A stretch of 64,000 nt of DNA, taken from positions 2,432,001 through 2,496,000 of the forward strand of contig OZ244999.1 of the NCBI GenBank assembly GCA_965223265.1, written 5' to 3'. Positions 33,271-43,062 of this stretch are shown piece by piece. A program made the position numbers and the translations under genes. Position 1 is the first letter of the stretch. Each line of letters begins with the position of its first letter. The stretch is from Planctomycetota bacterium (GTDB taxonomy: Bacteria; Planctomycetota; UBA8108; SXIK01). The notes beneath the pieces were generated by a model. The model saw only the letters and a list, made by a program, of their open reading frames with translations, was not told the DNA's origin and made no database searches.

Positions 33271-34443
33271 ATGAACGAAGAGCGCAGAAAAGAGGAAGCG
33301 CTCTTTCGCTACGCAGTCCTCGGCGATCTCCTGCACCGAGGTCTGCGCCGTGGTGAGCTCGGTCGCGTCCTCACCGAGCGCGCCCGCAAGCAGTGGAAAG
33401 GTCCCGACGGCCGCCCGCGCCGCATCGCCAAGAAGACTCTGGAGGAGTGGTTCTACAGATATCGCAATGGCGGCTTCGAGTCGCTGATGCCGTCGCCGCG
33501 CCGCGATCGCGGCAAGGTGCGGGCTCTGAAGGCAGAGATCGAAGAGCTCATCATCGCTATGAAGCGTGAAGATCCCGGTCGCTCGGCGCAGCTGATTCTT
33601 GAGGAGCTTGAGCTTGTCGGTCGTTTGCGCCGCAGGGAGGTGAGTGTCTCGACGATCCGAAGACTCCTGAGGCGTGAGGGACTCACCGGGGCGCGCATGG
33701 AGCTGGAGCGACCGACGCGTCTTCGCTGGCAAGCCTCTCGCTGTGGTGAGCTCTGGCTGTCAACGCCGGTTAATAAGCGCGTCTATTCGCCGGGTAACGT
33801 GAGCTCTCCGTACCCCGCGCCCCTGCCGAGCGGACGCCAGTCCGCACCCCGCGACCTCGCTCTCCCGGCGAGTCGCTCGTACCCCGCCTCCGAGTTCTGG
33901 GGTTGATCATCGCTCCACGGTGACGTAGCGTCGGCTGCGCGTGTGCTCGATCGTCTCGACTCAGAGAAAGTGACGACGCTCGATGATCTCAACCTGCGGC
34001 TCTCTTCTTGGGTGGAAGCACATTACAACACCCAGCCGCACTCCTCCCTCAGCGCCAAGACACCACTTGAGCTCTGGGAGGAAGACGCCGAGGAGATCCG
34101 CTGGGCTGATGATCGCGGCGCCATTGAGGAGGCATTTACCGACAAGCTCACGCGCAAGGTGCGCGAGGACTCCACATGCCAGTTGCGTGGTCGCACCTTC
34201 GAAGTGCCGCCGGAGCTCAGAGGGCGCTCGGTGGAGGTTCGTTACAGCCTTCTGCAGCCGGACCGTTTCTGGGTCGAAGACGGCCCCACGCGGATCCCAC
34301 TGAAAGAAGTCGATCCCGAAGCCAACGCGCGCCGCGCGCGGCAGAGGAACTCCCTAGAGAAGTCGAAAGAACTCCCTCAAACGGGACTCAATCCTGTTGA
34401 AGAAATACTGCGACGTGTAACCCAAAAGAGAAAGGATCTCTAG
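33271..34443 (+). pseudogene. DDE transposase with HTH N-terminus and Mu-transposase-like C-terminus; catalytic core missing
   Basis: ALFRYAVLG...TLEEWFYRY..ELW (to 33757), then unrelated sequence; resumes at about 33943 with YNTQPHSSL..TP, RKVREDST. Confidence 0.8.
33758..33942 (+). mobile_element. IS21-like left-end remnant
   Basis: Starts TGTCAACGCCGGTTAA with an internal CGCCGGKTAA repeat and TACCCCGC motifs like those near the IS21 end at 34752; right boundary approximate. Confidence 0.55.
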
Positions 34444-34996
34444 CGATGATGAATAAGGTCTTGAGTCGATTCGGTCTGGCGAAGAACCCCTTTACCAAAG
34501 ACGTCCCGGTGGACGAGCTCTTTGAGCACGACGGCACCGAGGGAGCTGTCAAACGCCTGAAGGCAGCGGTCGAAGGTCGCTCTTCGGCGGTGCTCACCGG
34601 TGAGCCCGGTACCGGCAAGACGTTCGTTCTGCGTGCCCTGGAGGAAAAACTGCCGAGCAATCGCTACCGCATCACCTACATCCACAACTCGCACGTTAAC
34701 ACGCGCGACTTCTACCGCCAGCTCTCGGTGGTGCTAGGGCTGGAGCCCAAGTGTCGACGGTGATCCGAAAGAGACACTATTCGGTGATTAAGCCGCTCCC
34801 CCGCTCCGGTTCTTCAGCGACCGATACCCCGCCGCACGCACTGCTCATACCCCGCCTTCCGATAACCGCGCACGGTCATCGCCGAGTTGATCACGGGCCA
34901 GCAACGCCGTAGTCTCGCCTCGCGCGTGATGAAAGCCGGGCTCCCCGTCAAAATGATTTGGCGATCATCGGGAAGCCCGTCCAAAAGACAGGCTGA

Positions 34997-35578
34997 GTGT
35001 CGCGCTCTGAGCTCTGCCTGTCCAGTCAAAGTTCGTGGCGGATGGGCGCTCGATCAACTCGCAGGTTCAGCTGCGATCGCTGCGGGAAGCTGGTCGACAT
35101 TTGCTCTGACTGCGATCGAGGCAATCGCTACTGCGGCTCGGACTGCAGCGCGGCTCGTCGAGCCGAGAGCTGCCGCAGCGCAAGCGCACGGTATCAAGGC
35201 ACTGAGTTAGGACGTCGCAGCCACCGCGCTCGCCAGAAGAGATATCGCAGCCGCCTCGTGCTCGCCTGCGGAACGCTGACACAGAGTTCTGCAGCGGAGA
35301 ACTCGAGCAGCGCGCAAGCGCCCGACTCCGAAGCCTTCGTCGGAACGACCGTGACTCATCACGGTTCCGCTTCGTCTGAACGTAACGTATTTCTCCCGTC
35401 GGACCGATCCGACAACTCTGCCGTCGCGACGCTGCGACAACTGGCAGATCCCGGACTGACATGTTGCATGTGTGTCGCTCGGTCCCGGCGCACGTGCGGT
35501 ACACGCTTTTGTCGGGAGAAGATCCTGGATGACGACCCCAGAAATCGAAGCGCAGATTCTCCGTCTTCATCACGGTGA
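34997..35578 (+). CDS. Cys-rich hypothetical protein upstream of istA
   Basis: CDRC....ICSDCDRGNRYC...C motif; start uncertain. Confidence 0.65.
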   Translation: MSRSELCLSSQSSWRMGARSTRRFSCDRCGKLVDICSDCDRGNRYCGSDCSAARRAESCRSASARYQGTELGRRSHRARQKRYRSRLVLACGTLTQSSAAENSSSAQAPDSEAFVGTTVTHHGSASSERNVFLPSDRSDNSAVATLRQLADPGLTCCMCVARSRRTCGTRFCREKILDDDPRNRSADSPSSSR

Positions 35579-36232
35579 GAAATGGCCACCTGGGACCATT
35601 GCTAACCAACTGAACGTCTCTCGTTCACTCGTTCGCAGAGTGCTCGAACGCAATGGCGCACCGCGAGCAACTCGAGCACGTTTGTCGAAAGCCGACGAGT
35701 ACGTCCCGTTTATCATCGCGACGCTCAGGAAGTATCCCCGCCTGACTGCCGTTCGTCTCTTCGAGATGGCTCGAGAGCGCGGCTACGAAGGTGGACCTGA
35801 TCACTTTCGCGCGATCGTTCGGCGTTATCGTCCGCCGAGATCGAGCGAGGCGTATCTACGCCTGCGAACACTTGCCGGCGATCAGGCTCAGGTTGATTGG
35901 GGACTCTTCGGCAAGATTCAGATCGGCGAGACGAGGCGTCCTCTCGTGGGCTTTGTCATGGTGCTCTCCTACTCGCGTGCAATTTTCCTGCGATTCTTCC
36001 CGACGCAGCAACTCGAACACTTCCTTGCCGGCCACCAAGAGGCATTTCAGCGATGGGGTGGAGCCCCACGCTCCATCTTGTACGACAACCTTCGGAGCGT
36101 CGTTGTAGAGCGAGTCGGCGATGCGATCCAGTTCAACGATCAGATCCATGCGTTCGCCGGACATTTTCGTTACGAGCCGCGTCCGGTTGCGCCGTACCGC
36201 GGCAACGAAAAGGAGTACGCTTCATACTGCAC

Positions 36233-38308
36233 CTATTCCCTTCTTTGCGTGGCAGGTTTTCTCGCCGCCGCTCGGTTCGGGCGGCATTTCCACTTGTACT
36301 TCTGCGGACGATCATCTCCGAGAGGTTCGTAGAGGTAGTCGTTTCGGTCGTTGTAGGCGTGAGCTTGCAGGAGTCCACGGCGACGCCAAGTCTTGACGGT
36401 GCAACGTGAGACATCGAGCTCTTGGGCGACCTCCTCCTGAGTGAGCATGCCGGCTTCTCGCAGGCGATCATAGCGGGGCTTGAGCTCGTAGTCCATCCGG
36501 AGCCGCCGTACCATGAGGCGGTCGAAGGAAAGCCCTTCGCCAGAACGATGTCCAGCGGCGTTCAGTTTGGCGGCGATCTGTACGTCGGTGTAGTTGTCGA
36601 GAAGCCGATCGATTTCCGCGATGACCTGCGGATGGGTCTGGCGTCGCTGCCAAGCCGGAATGGGGCGAGGCAGTGTGAAGGTGCGTAGCGCGCCGCCGCG
36701 GAACCGCACCTTCACTGCGATCGCCTCTTCCTTGCGGAGCGTCACGTCCTCGAGCAATAGACGCACCATGCGTTTTCGTTCCCTCGCCGGTGTTTTCGGA
36801 TCATTCCATAGCCGGGGGATATCGGTAGCGAGCTCGAGGATGCGAGCGTGTTCTTCCTTGTTGAGGATGACTCGATCTGCTTCTCTCTCGCGTTCGTACT
36901 CTGCCTCCGCCTCGCGCTGAGTCCGGAGCTTCCGATTCCAATCCGCTTCGAGTTCGTCAGCGACCAGACGGTTGTCGGGGTCTACCTGCAAGTAGCGACG
37001 ACGAGCGAGTTCCGTTTCGTAGCGAGCCCGCTCCACCTGCTGAGATCGCAGCCGATCGGCCTCGTCGAGGCGCGCCTGGATCTCTTCCTGGACAGCGAGC
37101 GTTACCTCGAGTGCCATGGGACTCACGGCCTCGATCAGAAGAGTGCCGATCGCCTCGTCGATGCTTGCTCCGGGAACGCATTGACACGACGGCGTAGCCT
37201 TCCGGATTCCCTCGCGTTGACACATATAGACGGGCTGGAGCTGACCGCGGTTTCTCTCATAGCGTACCGTCATACGTTTACCACAGACCCCGCAGACTAC
37301 GAGCCCTTGCAGGAGTGCCGGGCCTTCGCGCGGAGGGCTGCGTTTGCGGTCGTCGCCGTGAGCGCGCGCATTCTCCGTGAGGCGCCTCTGGTTCTCTTCG
37401 AATTCCTCTATTGGGATATATCCAGGATGCGCACCGGGTACGAAGGCCGTCCATTCTTCGCGCGGCAATAGACGATAGCGCTGACCGGTGACATCCGGAA
37501 GTTTCCGTTGACGCATGCGACCGTAGAAGAAGACTCCGGCGTAGCGAGGATTGTGCAAGACATGCAGTACCAGAGAGTGATCGAGTTCGGCCCAGAGGAT
37601 CTCTCCTTTGCTTGGTCCTGTCCGTGCCTTTCGTGGGAAGCGAAGTCCCTTCTCGCGGAACGCTTTCACCGTCGCTGTTGCTGAGCCGACTCGACGAAAG
37701 GTACGGAATAGCATCTGTATTGCGTCCCGCACCTGTCGGTCGGGGTGGAGCACGACTCGTCCTTCGGTATCGTAAATAAATCCTATGGGCAGCTTCGAAC
37801 GGAGCTCTCCCCGACGAGCCTTGTTGATGATCCCTCCCTGCAACCTGGCCTTCAGAACATGCAGCTCAGCCTCACTCATCGTCCCCTTCAGTCCCAAGAG
37901 AAGACGGTCGTTGAAGTGGGCCGGATCATAGATCCCGTCCTCATCGAGGATCAGAGTGTCCGTTAGGGCACAGATCTCAAGCAGTCGGTGCCAGTCGCTG
38001 GAGTTGCGAGCTAGACGCGAAACTTCCAGCCCCATGACGATCCCTGCGCGACCAAGACCGACCTCCGTCACCAACATCTGAAAGCCCTCTCGTTCGGTCG
38101 ACGAGGCACCTGACTGCCCAAGATCGCTGTCGATGACGACGACCCGCTCGGCAGGCCAGCCGAGGGCTAGCGCGCGCTGCTTCAAGTCGTACTGTCTTTT
38201 TGTGCTCTCGGTGTTCTCGAACACCTGCCGTAGCGTTGACTGACGAATGTAGAGGTATGCATTGCGAGCAAGATGCCGTGAGTCAACCTTCTGGTGGGCT
38301 TCGTTCAT
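36233..38308 (-). CDS. Large serine recombinase (resolvase, recombinase, Zn-ribbon domains)
   Basis: YIRQST catalytic Ser, DLGQSG, EVSRLARN, LHNPRYAG, LLQGLVVCGVCG. Confidence 0.95.
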   Translation of the reverse strand: MNEAHQKVDSRHLARNAYLYIRQSTLRQVFENTESTKRQYDLKQRALALGWPAERVVVIDSDLGQSGASSTEREGFQMLVTEVGLGRAGIVMGLEVSRLARNSSDWHRLLEICALTDTLILDEDGIYDPAHFNDRLLLGLKGTMSEAELHVLKARLQGGIINKARRGELRSKLPIGFIYDTEGRVVLHPDRQVRDAIQMLFRTFRRVGSATATVKAFREKGLRFPRKARTGPSKGEILWAELDHSLVLHVLHNPRYAGVFFYGRMRQRKLPDVTGQRYRLLPREEWTAFVPGAHPGYIPIEEFEENQRRLTENARAHGDDRKRSPPREGPALLQGLVVCGVCGKRMTVRYERNRGQLQPVYMCQREGIRKATPSCQCVPGASIDEAIGTLLIEAVSPMALEVTLAVQEEIQARLDEADRLRSQQVERARYETELARRRYLQVDPDNRLVADELEADWNRKLRTQREAEAEYEREREADRVILNKEEHARILELATDIPRLWNDPKTPARERKRMVRLLLEDVTLRKEEAIAVKVRFRGGALRTFTLPRPIPAWQRRQTHPQVIAEIDRLLDNYTDVQIAAKLNAAGHRSGEGLSFDRLMVRRLRMDYELKPRYDRLREAGMLTQEEVAQELDVSRCTVKTWRRRGLLQAHAYNDRNDYLYEPLGDDRPQKYKWKCRPNRAAARKPATQRRE

Positions 38309-38616
38309 GTGATGTCTCCAGCTTTTTCCCGCTCCAGCGCCATCCCCGCCAACACCACAACCACGTCCGAGCCGAGCGCACGGGGGATCACCGCCGCGGA
38401 GGAACGACCTGGCTGGGGTTCAATCGAGGAGGCACCGAGAAACTCAGTCCAAGCCTGCATCCAGGCCGCCATCCCACGGTGGACGAAGAGTGCGTACGCG
38501 TGTCTTCGAGAAGAACTGCCGCCTGCTGCCAGTGCGCCGCGCCGTAGCTCTTCGTATCGTGCCATAGACTCCCCCGGCTCTGAGTTCGAAGTGGCCGAGG
38601 AAGTCGCAGTAGTCAC
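38305..38616 (-). CDS. Small hypothetical protein of the recombinase element
   Basis: YEELR..AL....LFVHRGMAAW; overlaps both neighbours by 4 nt (alternative ATG at 38565). Confidence 0.7.
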   Translation of the reverse strand: MTTATSSATSNSEPGESMARYEELRRGALAAGGSSSRRHAYALFVHRGMAAWMQAWTEFLGASSIEPQPGRSSAAVIPRALGSDVVVVLAGMALEREKAGDIT

Positions 38617-39080
38617 TGCCGTTTTTTTTTCCGGCGCCTGAGCGCCCGTTGAACGCTGCGAGGGTGAACTTTGATATCGAACCGCTCTTCGATACGTGTT
38701 GCTAGCTGGGACGGTGAAAGAGAGCTGTCCTCTGTGAGAGCACTCTCGGCGAAGTCGAGCACGTCGTCTTTGAGTTTGTGCCGGCTGCGTGGTCCTCGTT
38801 TTCGCGGCACGAGACCAGGTATCCCGTCGCGTGCAAGCGCGGCCTGAGCGGCATAGAACGCTGGCCGGGAGAACCCGAACGACTTGGCACAGTCGCTGAC
38901 TGACGCCCCCTCGATCTGAGCCCGTCGAAGCATCTCGTACTTGACCTGAACCAGGTCCCGAGGGTCGAAGAACTCGTCGTCGGTGAAGAGGGGGTCGGTG
39001 ACTTTCTCCGGCTGGCGATTGAGCGCCTGGTGCTCGAGGAGATGGGTCTCCTTTGGATCCTTCGGTTTTCGCGGGCTCAT
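38613..39080 (-). CDS. Helix-turn-helix protein of the recombinase element
   Basis: FFDPRDLVQVKYEMLR, FGFSRPAFY, KRGPR..HKL, VHPRSVQRAL; GGAGG upstream. Confidence 0.85.
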   Translation of the reverse strand: MSPRKPKDPKETHLLEHQALNRQPEKVTDPLFTDDEFFDPRDLVQVKYEMLRRAQIEGASVSDCAKSFGFSRPAFYAAQAALARDGIPGLVPRKRGPRSRHKLKDDVLDFAESALTEDSSLSPSQLATRIEERFDIKVHPRSVQRALRRRKKKRQ

Positions 39081-39197
39081 GCAGACCTCCAGGTGACACC
39101 GAGAAGTATGTAATATAAATTACATCCCTAATCGCCTCGGTGTCAAGGTTCATTCTCGGAACGCCAAGGCCTATAAATAATTGGGTATTAGGCAAGC

Positions 39198-39586
39198 TTA
39201 CCCCTGCTCACCCTGCCCATCTTTCGGGACGTATTTTACTTTACCTTCATGGACGTCTTTTCCTTTACACTCTCCATCCTTCTCGGAACGATCGCTTCCC
39301 TCCACGTTCGTCACCAGCTCTACAAGGCGCAGGAGGTCGGCGACCCTGAAGAAGGCGCGGCCGGCAGAGACGACCACGAATGGATCCTCGGCACAAATGC
39401 TCGTCCAGCTCGCCGGCAGGCGCCGAAGACTCCCGTGATCGTCGTGGAAGTAGACTCGCTCCTCGCCCCAAACCTTGCCCAGCTCGACCAGCACGAACTC
39501 CCGTCCACAAAGCGGGTGAAAGGGGTGAGTGACTCGGAAAAGCTGCTTCGCATCTTTTCCGTCGACGGCATTCGACAACTTCTTCC
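39198..39586 (-). CDS. DUF5372 (Y4bD/Y4pK)-like protein running to the element end
   Basis: VTHPFHPL.GREF..., LPASWT....DPF; no ATG inside the element in integrated form (TTG at 39578 only). Confidence 0.75.
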
Positions 39587-40404
39587 AAAGGGCGCGTCGA
39601 AAGAGCCATTCGCTACGTACGCGACAACTTCATCCCTGCCCGTTCGTTCACGAGCTTCGAGGACATCAACGTGCAGGCTGATCAATGGTGCATGGGAAGC
39701 ACACTGCGACGCCCTTGGCAAGAGGATCGCAAGCAGACCGTTGCCGACGCACTCGAGCGGGATCGAGCCGCTCTGCGACCTCTTCCCGACAATCCGTTTC
39801 CCTGTGAAGAGCGCGTCGTTGTCAGCGCCGGAAAGACGCCCTACGTTCGTTTCGATCTCAACGATTACTCGATCCCTCACACGCATGTCGGCAAGCGCCT
39901 CGTCGTACTGGCGGATCTCCACACTGTCCGCGTTCTCGAGGGCGTCGAGGAGATCGCTCGGCACAAGCGATCGTTCGAACGCGATCGACAGATCGAGGAC
40001 GCTAATCACATCGAGACTCTCGCCGCTAAGAAACGGCATGCCGGCAAGACGCGCCGGACCGACGTGCTGGCGAAGGTCGCACCTTCAAGTGTGGAGCTTC
40101 TTCAGAAGCTGGCTGAACGCCACCAGGCGCTTGGACGTCACGTGCGGGAGCTGCACGACCTCCTTCGGACCTACGGTGCACAGAAGCTTGAAGCGGCGAT
40201 CAAGGAAGCACTGGAAAGCGAAGCACCACATCCGCAGGCAGTTCGACACGTCCTCGAGCGAGATCGAGAAGCTCAAGGACAGGCCGCCGCGCTGCCGCTG
40301 CCGCTTCCTGACGACCCGAGGTTCGTGGGGCTCGAGTTCACACCGCACTCGCTCGAAGACTACGACGATTTTCTGAGCGACGGCCCTGAGAAGGAGGAAG
40401 ATCG

Positions 40405-41202
40405 ATGACCACGACAAGGAAAGAGGCGAGTGAATCGCCGGATGACTACCGGCGACGACTGGAGCTGCTGGGCTTCCGGGGAATCGCTGAGAACTGGGAA
40501 GAGTTCGCCGGGGCAGATTGGATGCCGCGGCTCCTCAAGGTCGAGGAGAGAGACCGTGCCAAGCGGGGTCTTGAGCGAAGGCTTCGAAACGCTAAGCTCG
40601 GACGCTTCAAACCGTTCGCGGACTTCGACGGCTCCTGGCCGACGAAATACGATAGCGAACAGGTCCAGGAGACGTTCTCGCTCAGCTTCGTCGAGGAGGC
40701 GGCAAACGTCGTCCTGGTCGGACCGAACGGCATCGGCAAGACGATGATCGCCAAGAACCTCGCCTACGAGGCCGTCCTACGCGGGCACACTGCGCGCTTC
40801 ATCACAGCCAGCGAGCTCCTCAACGACCTCGCGGCACAAGACACCGGCACCGCGCTGGCGCGAAAACTCAGGCAGTACTCGCACTGGAAAGTTCTCGTCA
40901 TCGACGAAGTGGGCTACCTCGCCACCACGAATCGTCACGCCGATCTGCTGTTCGAGCTCGTCAATCGTCGCTACGAAGAGAAGCCGATCATCATGACGAC
41001 CAACAAAGTGTTCTCCGAATGGGGCGAAGTCTTTCCCAGCTCCACATGCGTTGTCACCATGATCGACCGACTCGTGCACAAGTCCGAGATCATCAAGCTC
41101 GAAGGTGAGTCCTATCGCGTCAAGGAGGCGAAGGAGCGCGAGGCCGAGCGTCAAGCCAAACGGACGGCCAAGAAGAAGACCTCGAAGAAACAGAGGGCCT
41201 GA
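40405..41202 (+). CDS. istB: IS21 helper ATPase IstB
   Basis: GPNGIGKT, LVIDEVGY, TTNK.FSEW, IDRLVH, GESYR. Confidence 0.95.
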   Translation: MTTTRKEASESPDDYRRRLELLGFRGIAENWEEFAGADWMPRLLKVEERDRAKRGLERRLRNAKLGRFKPFADFDGSWPTKYDSEQVQETFSLSFVEEAANVVLVGPNGIGKTMIAKNLAYEAVLRGHTARFITASELLNDLAAQDTGTALARKLRQYSHWKVLVIDEVGYLATTNRHADLLFELVNRRYEEKPIIMTTNKVFSEWGEVFPSSTCVVTMIDRLVHKSEIIKLEGESYRVKEAKEREAERQAKRTAKKKTSKKQRA

Positions 41203-41479: not shown

Positions 41480-41802
41480 CTCGGAGGCTCGAACGTGTTA
41501 ATCACCGAATAGTGTCCTTTTTCGGCCACCGTCAACACCCAAGGCGACCTCCGAAGCGCTCTTCCGCATGATCAGCCGTCACCTGGAGGAGACGGCGCTC
41601 TCGAAGGTGCACCCGGTGATCGTCTTCGATGAGTGATGTGGAGCTCCACATCACCGCACACATGGGGAGTTCGGAGTTATGTGGAGTAGCGGAGTGAAGT
41701 CGTTGCTTTACAACACGTTCCAGTTCTCGCTCTCCCCATAAACCGGTAGCGTCGGTCTCCTCAGCACCCGCGGTGGGTGCCCCTCAAATCGGGAGATCGA
41801 CC

Positions 41803-43062
41803 ATGATCGAAAAAGCTGAATCGTTCCCAGGCAGATCGTCACTCAGCGGCCTCGTCGCCGCTGCTCTTCGCCACCTCGAAGGTCTCGGCTACAGCCGACG
41901 AACTGTCGGGTACTATCGGAATTCGTGGAACAAGCTTCTCGAGTTCGCTCGAGAGTCGAAGCGGCGCGCGTTCTCGTCCGAACTCGTCTGTCGGTTCTTG
42001 GCTCACCACGGGATCAGCTCCGACGCTGATCAGGGGAAGCTACGCTGGCGTGAGGTCGAGCTGCTCAAGGCGCTGCGGATCCTCACGGAGTTCGCCGAAG
42101 GCGGCAGCTTTCGGCCGTACCGCAAGCGGCTTCCCGAGCCGGTCTTCGCCAAGACGATCGCGGCCGAGCTACTGGCCTACGAGGCCTTCTGCCGTGAGCA
42201 CCTCGGACATCGCCCCTGCACCGTCGCGCAGCGCCGAAGAGTGGTCGTCCAGTTCTTTCAGTTCCTCAACCCTCGAGGCATCTCCGCCTTGCGAGGACTG
42301 AGGACGCGCGACTTCTGCGATTTTCTCGACTCTCTCACGCAGTTGAGTCCTCCGTCGCTCGCCGCCGTATCAGGAGCGCTCAAGTCCTTTGTCCGCTACC
42401 TGTGCATGCGTGGGATCGTCGAACCGAAGGTGGCGGATGAATGGGTTCCCATCCGCTTCGCGAAGGAGAGTCGGCTTCCGTCCGTCTGGCCGGCAAGCGC
42501 GGTAAAGGAACTCCTCGCCGCTGTGGATCGTAGCACCACACAGGGCAAACGAGATTACGCCATCCTTCTCCTCGCTTGCCGCTTCGGCCTTCGAGCCAGC
42601 GACATTCGGACGTTGCGTCTCGACGACATCCGTTGGTCGAACGGTCGCATTGACCTTCGTCAGTCGAAGACAGGTCAGCCGTTGACGCTCCCCCTCGAGG
42701 ACGACGTCGCCGACGCACTCATCGATTACCTCCAACACGGCCGGCCGGCGACGAGCTATCGCCAGGTGTTTCTGAAGACCCGTGCTCCGGTGGCACCTCT
42801 CGGGGAGCGAAACAATCTCGTCACCATCGTGTCTTCTCACCTCAGCGGCCTGAAGACGCCTCTGCCTGCGGAGACCCGACGCGGCCTCCATGCTCTTCGT
42901 CACACTCTAGCCACACGTCTCCTCCGGGCTGGCGAACCGCTCGAGACGATTGCGGCGATCCTCGGACACACCTCGGTCGAGTCGACCAGGCTCTATACGA
43001 GTCTCGACCTGGAAGCTCTGCATTGCGTCGCTCTCGACCCCGAGGAGGTGCTCCATGGGTAG
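41803..43062 (+). CDS. Tyrosine recombinase, RitA-like
   Basis: RDYAILLL...GLRASD, QSKTG, HALRHTLAT, LGH...ST..Y. Confidence 0.93.
   Translation: MIEKAESFPGRSSLSGLVAAALRHLEGLGYSRRTVGYYRNSWNKLLEFARESKRRAFSSELVCRFLAHHGISSDADQGKLRWREVELLKALRILTEFAEGGSFRPYRKRLPEPVFAKTIAAELLAYEAFCREHLGHRPCTVAQRRRVVVQFFQFLNPRGISALRGLRTRDFCDFLDSLTQLSPPSLAAVSGALKSFVRYLCMRGIVEPKVADEWVPIRFAKESRLPSVWPASAVKELLAAVDRSTTQGKRDYAILLLACRFGLRASDIRTLRLDDIRWSNGRIDLRQSKTGQPLTLPLEDDVADALIDYLQHGRPATSYRQVFLKTRAPVAPLGERNNLVTIVSSHLSGLKTPLPAETRRGLHALRHTLATRLLRAGEPLETIAAILGHTSVESTRLYTSLDLEALHCVALDPEEVLHG

Follow-up and report, generated by a model that had tools for sequence, protein, structure and literature searches.

A DUF5372 gene split between the two ends of a large serine recombinase element inserted in a planctomycetotal istA gene

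An interrupted transposase gene in the DNA analysed here (the window, 64,000 nucleotides of contig OZ244999.1 from a Planctomycetota bacterium) raises the question of what interrupts it and of how the inserted DNA could express a DUF5372 gene whose body lies at one end of the insertion and whose apparent start lies at the other. The target is an IS21-family istA on the plus strand, of which the 5′ part (positions 35472..36211; HTH plus rve; ending ..PYRGNE and K) lies upstream of the insertion and the 3′ part (39587..40408; K-G-R-V-E-R.., with Mu-transpos_C_2) downstream of it, and istB follows 3′ of istA at 40405-41202, a position taken only from the ORF list. The left junction (36204-36219) reads AACGAA[AA]GGAGTACG and the right junction (39582-39595) reads CTTCC[AA]AGGGCGC. 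Joining the two flanks through AA deletes 3377 bp and gives GAA AAA GGG CGC GTC GAA, and the IstA frame is restored exactly, as a sequence-only reading of this locus had claimed.

The whole element was placed at 36210..39588 on the minus strand (3379 bp including the AA crossover, TT on the minus strand, at each end), with the crossover dinucleotides at 36210..36211, at the end of the large serine recombinase (LSR) gene, and at 39587..39588, at the DUF5372 end. These boundaries were confirmed by a further copy in this genome, which is 100% identical over exactly 36210-39588, has AA at both ends and occupies the same codon of another IS21-like istA (between ..PRKPRDK and AKVESG). The AA at the LSR end is common to both copies while their flanks differ, and at the DUF5372 end the identity stops right after the AA. 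Because they are fixed by copies in one genome, the boundaries are independent of reading frame, and seven such pairs (the window pair and six more) fixed them in this manner; the copies L020 and L023 share more than the element, and no boundary was drawn from that pair. In contigs of public sequencing runs, the element was also present as a separate 3379-bp piece (36210-39588), and a third junction, likewise starting at 36210..36211, was found at low depth at a site unoccupied in the assembly, which points to recent mobility of the element. No intact paralogue of the window's IS21, from which the empty attB could be read, was present in the genome. The 2-bp crossover at both junctions without target duplication, the inverted arms around the core (an attP of about 50 bp) and an LSR with PF00239, PF07508 and PF13408 each above cut-off are the features of an LSR element. 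Positions 36210-39588 are thus a transposon-like element that an LSR moves via a 2-bp AA crossover.

On the minus strand the gene order is DUF5372, promoter, HTH, small ORF and LSR. The HTH protein (38613..39080, 155 aa, the first gene of the operon) matches HTH_32/HTH_28 and, weakly, the N-terminal parts of IS630/IS481 transposases; GGAGG stands 5 nt upstream of its ATG, and an HTH gene follows DUF5372 in 77 of the 80 fetched loci. The small ORF (38305..38571, about 88 aa, no known family) overlaps the LSR start with its stop (ATGA) and matched no Pfam or NCBIfam profile, and relatives at 29-53% identity were detected in many loci by tblastn. The LSR (36233..38308, 691 aa; Resolvase, Recombinase and Zn_ribbon_recom) has R22-Q23-S24 invariant in 34 sequences and an HTH-like stretch (616-661) in its C-terminal extension, and its relatives, 53-65% identical, occur in the same gene order. 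Two features were read directly from the sequence, namely a coiled coil in the LSR (398-500, with the tip DPDNR) and a promoter-like element on the minus strand, downstream of the DUF5372 stop and ahead of the HTH gene (39117..39146; TTGACA, a 16-18 nt spacer and TGTAAT(T)). Of 68 distinct intergenic regions from homologous loci, 39 contain the strict pattern TTGAC-N16-19-NRTART. A perfect 10-nt inverted repeat, TGACACCGAG / CTCGGTGTCA, with 32 nt between its halves, spans the window promoter (39094..39145) and is a candidate operator; it was dropped as a family feature, its sequence not being conserved in other loci.

The body of the DUF5372 gene runs on the minus strand from a TGG codon that starts in the core to the stop (39198..39587). 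The ORF within it (39578-39198) matched PF17342, which NCBI names the Y4bD/Y4pK family, at 78.3 bits (cut-off 25; E 4.5e-22; profile positions 1-76 of 78). The first ~25 nt of the body form one attP arm (TCGAATGC, mirror of ACTGCAC). Before the domain, the sole in-frame ATG, GTG or TTG of the integrated state is the TTG at 39578-76 that the earlier reading had named, with GGAAG merely 3 nt upstream, and the frame continues into the flank to a stop at 39630-32 without meeting a start. Some leaky translation while integrated is possible from this TTG, four codons into the body and behind a weak, close GGAAG. The missing 5′ piece lies at the opposite end of the element (36211..36234, minus strand), where an SD-like AGGTG (36234-30), an ATG (36225-23) and the codons AAG CGT ACT CCT double as the other attP arm (half-site motif GTGCAGT). 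Joined through the TT core (GG AAG AAG TTG...), this piece continues the frame of the PF17342 ORF, as in the circle junction drawn earlier, with SD and ATG fused in frame to DUF5372. The attP site is inside the DUF5372 gene, with the SD-like box, ATG and first five codons placed after the LSR stop (TAG, 36235-36233; the LSR ORF ends 21 nt before the core). The joint brings SD and ATG on one side to coding sequence on the other, and the promoter-like sequence is wholly internal to the element rather than composed of a −35 and a −10 from opposite ends. These data lend good support to the conclusion that the DUF5372 gene becomes complete only when the element is excised and its ends are joined.

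The sequence-only reading had proposed that ends of homologous elements be joined in silico to see if the ATG after GGTGCAGT stays in frame with DUF5372. This was done for the main set of 51 homologous loci with both ends found, which share ancestry and are not independent trials, and the joined frame was open and in frame into DUF5372 in 50 of the 51. The far end is kept as (G)GAGGTGCAGT(A/G)TG + 11 nt + TT, the start codon being ATG in 39 loci, GTG in 11 and CTG in 1, and the core is TT (gene sense) in 47. Two loci outside the search settings (L022 and L040) conformed by eye, as did the copy in Sinorhizobium fredii NGR234. At the near (left) arm, the geometry is kept in 78 loci; the THPF motif lies 58 nt from the core in 71 loci, 55 nt from it in 5 and 64 nt from it in 2, differences that are all multiples of 3. 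When the 71 distinct near arms were surveyed, 57 had no in-frame ATG, GTG or TTG before the domain, 14 carried an in-frame GTG or TTG and none an ATG; in 18, the flank provides an in-frame start.

Since the motif that holds the start is also an attP arm, we considered that the far-end ATG might be incidental, kept only as an LSR half-site and as the LSR C-terminus, with DUF5372 translated in place. Its GTGCAGT is the mirror of ACTGCAC in the other arm, automated gene calling does assign DUF5372 proteins to integrated copies, and in 18 of the 51 loci the LSR runs across the motif, ending ..[E/G]VQ[Y/C]EA-stop three bases before the core, so that the earlier remark that TAG replaces the GAG of homologous recombinases in the window proved right. 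However, the two arms share only part of their sequence: GG (2-3), GC (9-10), A16 and TGCAC (18-22) are common to both (45 distinct elements), while ATG (positions 13-14 100%) and GAG (89-98%), with 6 nt from GAGG to the start, are conserved in the far arm only. The start codon begins with A or G in 50 of the 51 loci, and where ATG is swapped for GTG the LSR residue changes from Y to C and the start codon is retained. The position of the LSR stop varies (18 loci have it 3 nt before the core, 12 have it 22 nt and 5 have it 10 nt before, with others), the ORF stopping before the core in most loci, and the SD and ATG DNA is kept although the LSRs stop in different frames and places, the window's own earlier stop included. 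Moreover, the annotated starts are scattered, often within the domain (at the V of VTHPFHP), and this V codon is GTG in only 19 of the 71 arms; such erratic gene-caller starts are explained by the gene being split in integrated copies. The SD and ATG overlap the attP arm (and in 18 loci the LSR C-terminus too), and constraint on the site and on the start codon are thus not fully separable, but together with a natural joined gene these observations make an incidental start very improbable.

The joined gene is found in a metagenome contig (L083), in which an LSR C-terminus (248 aa), GAGGTGCAGT, ATG and a full DUF5372 gene of 102 aa are contiguous. A second metagenome-derived protein (P0121) is 83% identical to the L083 DUF5372 protein and has the same N-terminus. 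L083, the single joined form verified as DNA, could represent a tandem or a free replicon instead of a transient circle, and both cases would suit the idea that the element normally persists with its ends joined, as a small free replicon or in tandem arrays, and that integration is a dead end that disables DUF5372, with no regular switch; fragmentation of an element's gene on integration is also known from SSV-type elements. We consider this improbable, given that no replication gene exists among the element's four ORFs, that all 80 genome loci fetched are integrated forms, and that one genome has several copies and a polymorphic site, which speaks for repeated rounds of excision and re-insertion. 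Searches for further joined forms gave no match for the joined-form pattern in viral_contigs, none for the L083 junction against plasmids (blastn), and no terminal overlaps marking circular assemblies in 21 short contigs. No circle joint was seen in the contigs of public runs X1-X4, a result that is uninformative because contigs drop rare variants.

The structure model of DUF5372 is an SH3-like barrel with two helices (mean pLDDT 76.7). Foldseek gave no match at E ≤ 0.001 and the best VIA-align hit had a Z of 5.8 (44-47 residues, rmsd 1.4-1.7); because the matches were generic SH3/KOW/Tudor-like barrels only, no function followed from the fold searches. The modelled LSR-DUF5372 complex scored 0.73, while the best of three controls scored 0.00. 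The mark applied to this score was attained with 58 of 80 solved complexes and with 2 of 110 mismatched pairs, a calibration that is roughly valid here, as our own alignments were used. At least 74% of contacts agreed between runs, with a partner pLDDT of at least 64. The predicted interface on the LSR (338-343, 394-413 and 480-541) places DUF5372 at the zinc-ribbon/coiled-coil junction; the modelled interface residues include LSR 517-518 and 533-541 and DUF5372 75-85. According to the accessible parts of three reports, recombination directionality factors (RDFs) of serine integrases bind at this junction of DBD2 and coiled coil and set the direction of the reaction (PMC11795197, PMC11722253, PMC5814800). 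The earlier suggestion that DUF5372 is a directionality or integration factor thus gains support from the model and from the RDF site described in the available portion of PMC11795197.

Our best overall explanation, to which we assign a probability of roughly 0.7, is that an element-wide transcription unit is split at attP and that DUF5372 is rebuilt on joining and acts on the LSR. One unit (promoter, HTH, small ORF, LSR, attP, DUF5372) would wrap across its own attachment site, and integration would cut it within DUF5372, leaving the SD box, start and five codons beside the LSR stop and, at the other end, the coding body, which is antisense to the target gene and has the sole recognisable promoter downstream of it. 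A complete DUF5372 gene, translationally coupled to the LSR, would be created by excision or by any end joining in the attP form, and expression would thereby be specific to the circle. The protein would then bind the LSR at the predicted site. In the version that we prefer, and here the direction of the effect is a guess, DUF5372 would, as long as the element is free, bias the LSR towards re-integration or block the reverse reaction, and its synthesis would stop once integration splits the gene again. A direction towards integration is without precedent: the characterised cofactors at this hotspot all favour excision, as far as the available text of PMC11795197 and PMC11722253 goes, and such an activity would fit poorly with synthesis only after excision.

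The same precedent, together with the predicted interface, speaks for a classical RDF that is needed for excision and is made at a low level in the integrated state through read-in transcription and internal or near-cognate starts, such as the TTG of the window or the in-frame GTG or TTG of 14 of the 71 arms; the far-end ATG would then only boost synthesis after excision, for example so that the element stays free for transfer or so that sister copies are excised. We regard this as unlikely, since most near arms (57 of 71) lack any in-frame start and the only promoter stands downstream of the body, which is antisense to the target gene. Furthermore, an RDF whose synthesis is strongest while the element is free would prevent re-integration, yet the element occupies two or three sites in one population. 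Tentatively, the preferred reading can be carried further to a cofactor of reversed polarity, in which the LSR alone excises, the circle builds the gene of the cofactor, the cofactor takes up the RDF hotspot and turns the enzyme to integration, and integration destroys the gene, in a family parasitic on DDE transposons. If true, this would be a self-resetting two-state switch without a regulator, its state written in DNA topology.

In Tn4451, the joint of the circle reportedly creates the promoter of tnpX, so that expression depends on end joining, a finding ascribed to Lyras and Rood in 2000. The element described here resembles Tn4451 and Tn4453 as a small LSR element with a 2-bp crossover, but their targets differ, and in place of a joint that builds a recombinase promoter it has an internal promoter and a joint that unites SD and start with the body of an accessory gene. 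These clostridial elements are moved by the LSR TnpX and have a circular form, and TnpX needs no other element protein (Lyras et al. 2004), both as given in the accessible part of PMC3158075. The 'suicidal' SSV-type integrases of archaeal viruses and plasmids have the recombination site in an element gene that integration fragments, and self-disrupting recombinases are apparently found only in archaea, according to the portion of PMC8371274 available. The SSV-type enzymes are tyrosine recombinases whose own gene is split, whereas this bacterial serine element, similar in fragmenting one of its own genes, interrupts DUF5372 behind codon 5 and keeps its recombinase gene intact. Known RDFs (phiC31 gp3, the TG1 and Bxb1 RDFs, SPbeta SprB) are small and structurally unrelated, and DUF5372 is modelled at the same integrase site; unlike these ordinary, phage-regulated genes whose products favour excision, synthesis of this PF17342 protein would be tied to element topology. 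Expression of recombination genes is also state-dependent through junction promoters of the IS911/IS21 type and sib retroregulation in lambda. For ICEKp1, the accessible text of PMC13023037 describes int promoter switching, by which the joined and integrated states express a recombination gene differently, regulatory DNA being parted from the gene by the att site or the ends. All of these act via promoters or RNA stability, whereas here translation-initiation signals and first codons are parted from the frame. In the literature searched, which covered few subscription journals, we found no mention of DUF5372, no biological paper on y4bA/y4bD/y4pH/y4pK, and no description of the element family or of an excision-assembled start codon.

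If correct, this arrangement offers a mobile element a simple, regulator-free way to sense its integrated or free state, and a new control of direction for serine integrases, which are widely used in genome engineering. It also gives a first testable role to PF17342, a widespread uncharacterised family (279 matches in one search) that spans many phyla and is also carried by symbiosis plasmids of rhizobia. The element family targets DNA coding for the catalytic-glutamate motif (..K/N-G-K/R-V-E-R..) of DDE transposases, a choice that describes a mobile element specialised in disabling insertion sequences; on the tentative reading of reversed polarity, the family would depend on DDE transposons as an obligate parasite, recognising catalytic-glutamate-motif DNA across several IS families. 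Copies of the family are present in S. fredii NGR234 and S. meliloti, which makes bench tests straightforward.

The element (window 36210–39588, 3379 bp) was found to carry four genes on its minus strand: the DUF5372 ORF (39578–39198; PF17342, E = 4.5e-22), an HTH protein (39080–38613) separated from it by an intergenic region of ~120 nt, a small ORF (38571–38305) whose stop overlaps the start of the next gene, and that next gene, which encodes a 691-aa large serine recombinase (LSR; 38308–36233) with Resolvase, Recombinase and zinc-ribbon domains and a C-terminal HTH-like extension. It interrupts an IS21-family istA, with the rve domain before the insertion and Mu-transpos_C_2 after it. The sequence-only reading had proposed that one crossover at a 2-bp AA core (TT in the gene sense) restores IstA and also joins the LSR-side end to DUF5372, which thereby gains its start; direct reading of the sequence bore out the junctions and the core, the recovery of E-K-G-R-V-E in IstA, and the join on the minus strand. 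A second copy in the same genome is 100% identical across exactly window 36210–39588; it interrupts another IS21-like istA, again within this motif (..PRKPRDK/AKVESG..), with AA at each end. Since the identity covers exactly the same span, the element boundaries are independent of reading frame.

In contigs from four public sequencing runs, the element formed a separate 3379-bp piece whose depth nearly equaled that of its flanks added together. A third left junction occurred at low depth, and its site is empty in the assembled genome, which points to recent mobility or to a population of mixed genotypes. The third flank was joined to the LSR-side end (window 36209/36210) in runs X1 and X4, at depths of 4 and 2.6, respectively, versus 8.6 and 4.95 for the window flank. 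Its site, near 1213141 in the coordinates of the source genome's contig (G000:C1) and outside the window, is not a transposase motif; the opposite strand there resembles the beginning of a gene for a membrane or secreted protein.

DUF5372 relatives at E ≤ 0.001 numbered 279 among 284 candidates, some of them named Y4bD/Y4pK family, and their annotated N-termini are erratic, many being placed at the V of VTHPFHP, which is internal to the domain. When one genome per species was scanned, 500 relatives emerged, and among the best 80 loci, which were kept, an HTH gene follows DUF5372 in 77 and an LSR match in 70, the remainder being cut contigs or remnants; element length in relatives is ~3.3–3.5 kb. 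The LSR gene is interrupted in L014, L032, L047/L058 and L082 by ~2.5–3.7 kb of other DNA or an inverted second LSR, and the elements are therefore themselves targets of insertions.

Seven same-genome pairs of homologous loci (window/L002, L003/L005, L008/L009, L031/L034, L035/L038, L044/L046 and L030/L052, L002 being the second copy), representing seven lineages, fix the ends without recourse to frame. In all seven, the LSR-side end consists of (G)GAGGTGCA.T(A/G)TG followed by 11 nt and TT, the opposite end begins with TT, and joining the two continues the frame into DUF5372. Across 82 loci (80 fetched plus the two own copies), the THPF motif and a recognizable near arm (the DUF5372-side arm of attP, the element's own attachment site) were present in 78, with a core-to-THPF distance of 58 nt in 71 loci, 55 nt in 5 and 64 nt in 2, all differences being multiples of three. 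The far-end (LSR-side) motif was found 3.0–3.7 kb away in 51 loci; 12 contigs stop short of that distance, and 15 loci lacked the motif at the settings used. Two of these 15 fit the pattern when inspected by eye, namely L022, whose motif has three mismatches, and L040, whose element is longer; L079 is a truncated contig, and several more that were inspected resemble remnants. The far-end start codon is ATG in 39 of the 51 loci, GTG in 11 and CTG in 1, and the core is TT in 47. When the ends of these homologues were joined in silico, as the sequence-only reading had proposed, the frame into DUF5372 was open in 50 of 51, the sole exception being L053, whose end is decayed. The pattern also holds for a copy in Sinorhizobium fredii NGR234, where the start is GTG-ATG and the distance 61 nt.

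Three constraints overlap on the far-end stretch: the attP arm, the LSR C terminus (in some elements) and the proposed start. In logos from 45 distinct elements, GG, GC and A.TGCAC are common to both arms, while the ATG bases (positions 13–14 at 100%, position 15 A or G) and a GAG just past the shared motif (89–98%) are kept in the far arm only, resulting in the layout GAGG, six bases, start. The LSR end varies in frame and place, lying 3 nt before the core as ..VQ[Y/C]EA* in 18 loci, 22 nt in 12 and 10 nt in 5 (21 nt in the window), yet the far-end DNA motif is constant, and the ATG/GTG alternation switches an LSR residue from Y to C with the start codon retained. The L008/L009 LSR has no stop before the core, so that its C terminus is set by the flank when integrated or by the DUF5372 arm when joined. 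Among 71 distinct near arms, 57 have no in-frame ATG, GTG or TTG between core and domain, and an in-frame ATG is absent from all 71. In only 18 does the flank provide an in-frame start ahead of any stop, and only 19 use GTG for the V of VTHP. The homologues share ancestry and these arm and frame counts are not independent trials, but the pattern is still what a real start and translated linker would be expected to leave.

A promoter-like TTGACA-N16-18-TGTAAT(T) sits between the DUF5372 stop and the HTH gene, straddled in the window by a perfect 10-nt inverted repeat. Of 68 distinct intergenic regions from homologues, 39 contain the strict pattern TTGAC-N16-19-NRTART, and a GCATAAT...TTACA box can be made out by eye in many of the remainder. 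DUF5372 thus lies upstream of the only recognizable promoter, ~10 nt from the element boundary. Its orientation is invariably antisense to the target gene, given that transposase is encoded on the other strand of the flanks. When integrated, DUF5372 lacks a promoter and an SD, and usually a start as well; when joined, it is the last gene of an operon running across attP, its start lying 7 nt past the LSR stop in the window and overlapping the LSR end in most relatives.

Metagenome contigs were scanned for both arm motifs in joined order, and this revealed one contig, L083, in which a single strand encodes, unbroken, the last 248 LSR residues, then GAGGTGCAGT, ATG and a complete 102-residue DUF5372. 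The joined form thus exists as natural DNA, and L083 may represent a circle, a tandem or a free form. A search with the L083 protein matched P0121 (83% identical, full-length coverage, three member sequences) with the same N terminus, and another protein match, P0136, has an N terminus of equal length. Taken together, the initial observation was confirmed and its interpretation supported.

Structure modeling of DUF5372 (mean pLDDT, 76.7) gave an SH3/KOW-like barrel of five strands with two helices, and its fold matches were generic. Complex prediction of LSR with DUF5372 scored 0.73 versus 0.00 for the best of three controls, with at least 74% of contacts agreeing between runs and partner pLDDT of at least 64; in benchmarking, 58 of 80 solved complexes and 2 of 110 mismatched pairs attained this mark, counts that apply only approximately because the LSR–DUF5372 prediction used alignments of our own. 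The modeled binding resembles that of recombination directionality factors (RDFs), and DUF5372 may be a classical RDF. However, a classical RDF produced only after excision would impede reintegration, and the element nonetheless has several sites in one population. For this reason we prefer an integration-favoring role, and our guess is that DUF5372 is a cofactor acting in the free state of the element, where it would promote integration or lock the product.

The individual parts, including joint-dependent expression and RDF-like binding, are of known kinds: the element resembles Tn4451 as an LSR transposon and SSV-type integrases in having a gene split by its own att site. In the literature covered, with subscription journals largely outside its scope, we did not find in print the combination of an attP that parts translation signals and five codons from a putative cofactor gene within a transposase-gene-targeting family.

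The family inserts at DNA coding for the catalytic-glutamate motif of several kinds of DDE transposase (IS21-like, other rve types and ISL3). In 51 loci, the core coincides with the K/N codon of ..K/N-G-K/R-V-E-R.. (window target sites, 36204–36211 and 39587–39604; homologue flanks, L003–L082). Among 35 translated N-terminal flanks, 20 matched rve at E ≤ 0.001, only about half of them at Pfam's own cutoff; most of the 20 matches extend to the final position of the profile, which lies two residues short of the core. Transposase HTH domains only were matched by 4, DDE_Tnp_ISL3 by 1 and citrate synthase by 1 (L029, an off-target), and 9 gave no match at this threshold. Some plasmid copies lie beneath genes annotated IS66 tnpB.

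The LSR extension runs ~150 residues past the usual zinc-ribbon/coiled-coil part (residues about 550–691, window 36233–36650), is kept in relatives, and contains an HTH-like stretch at 616–661 (HTH_17/MerR_1, below or near cutoffs); it may help to read the target. By reading of the ORF list, the neighborhood (window 33943–34763 and 41773–43062) appears to be an accumulation of mobile DNA, containing the C-terminal portion of a further transposase-like ORF, an ORF resembling a P-loop ATPase and a 429-aa ORF resembling a tyrosine recombinase. In L033 and L034, the two flanks derive from differing transposase types (e.g., ..APRSPWQ / KGKVERQIQYLRHAFF..), the expected trace of recombination between copies in different targets, and the element may therefore drive rearrangements.
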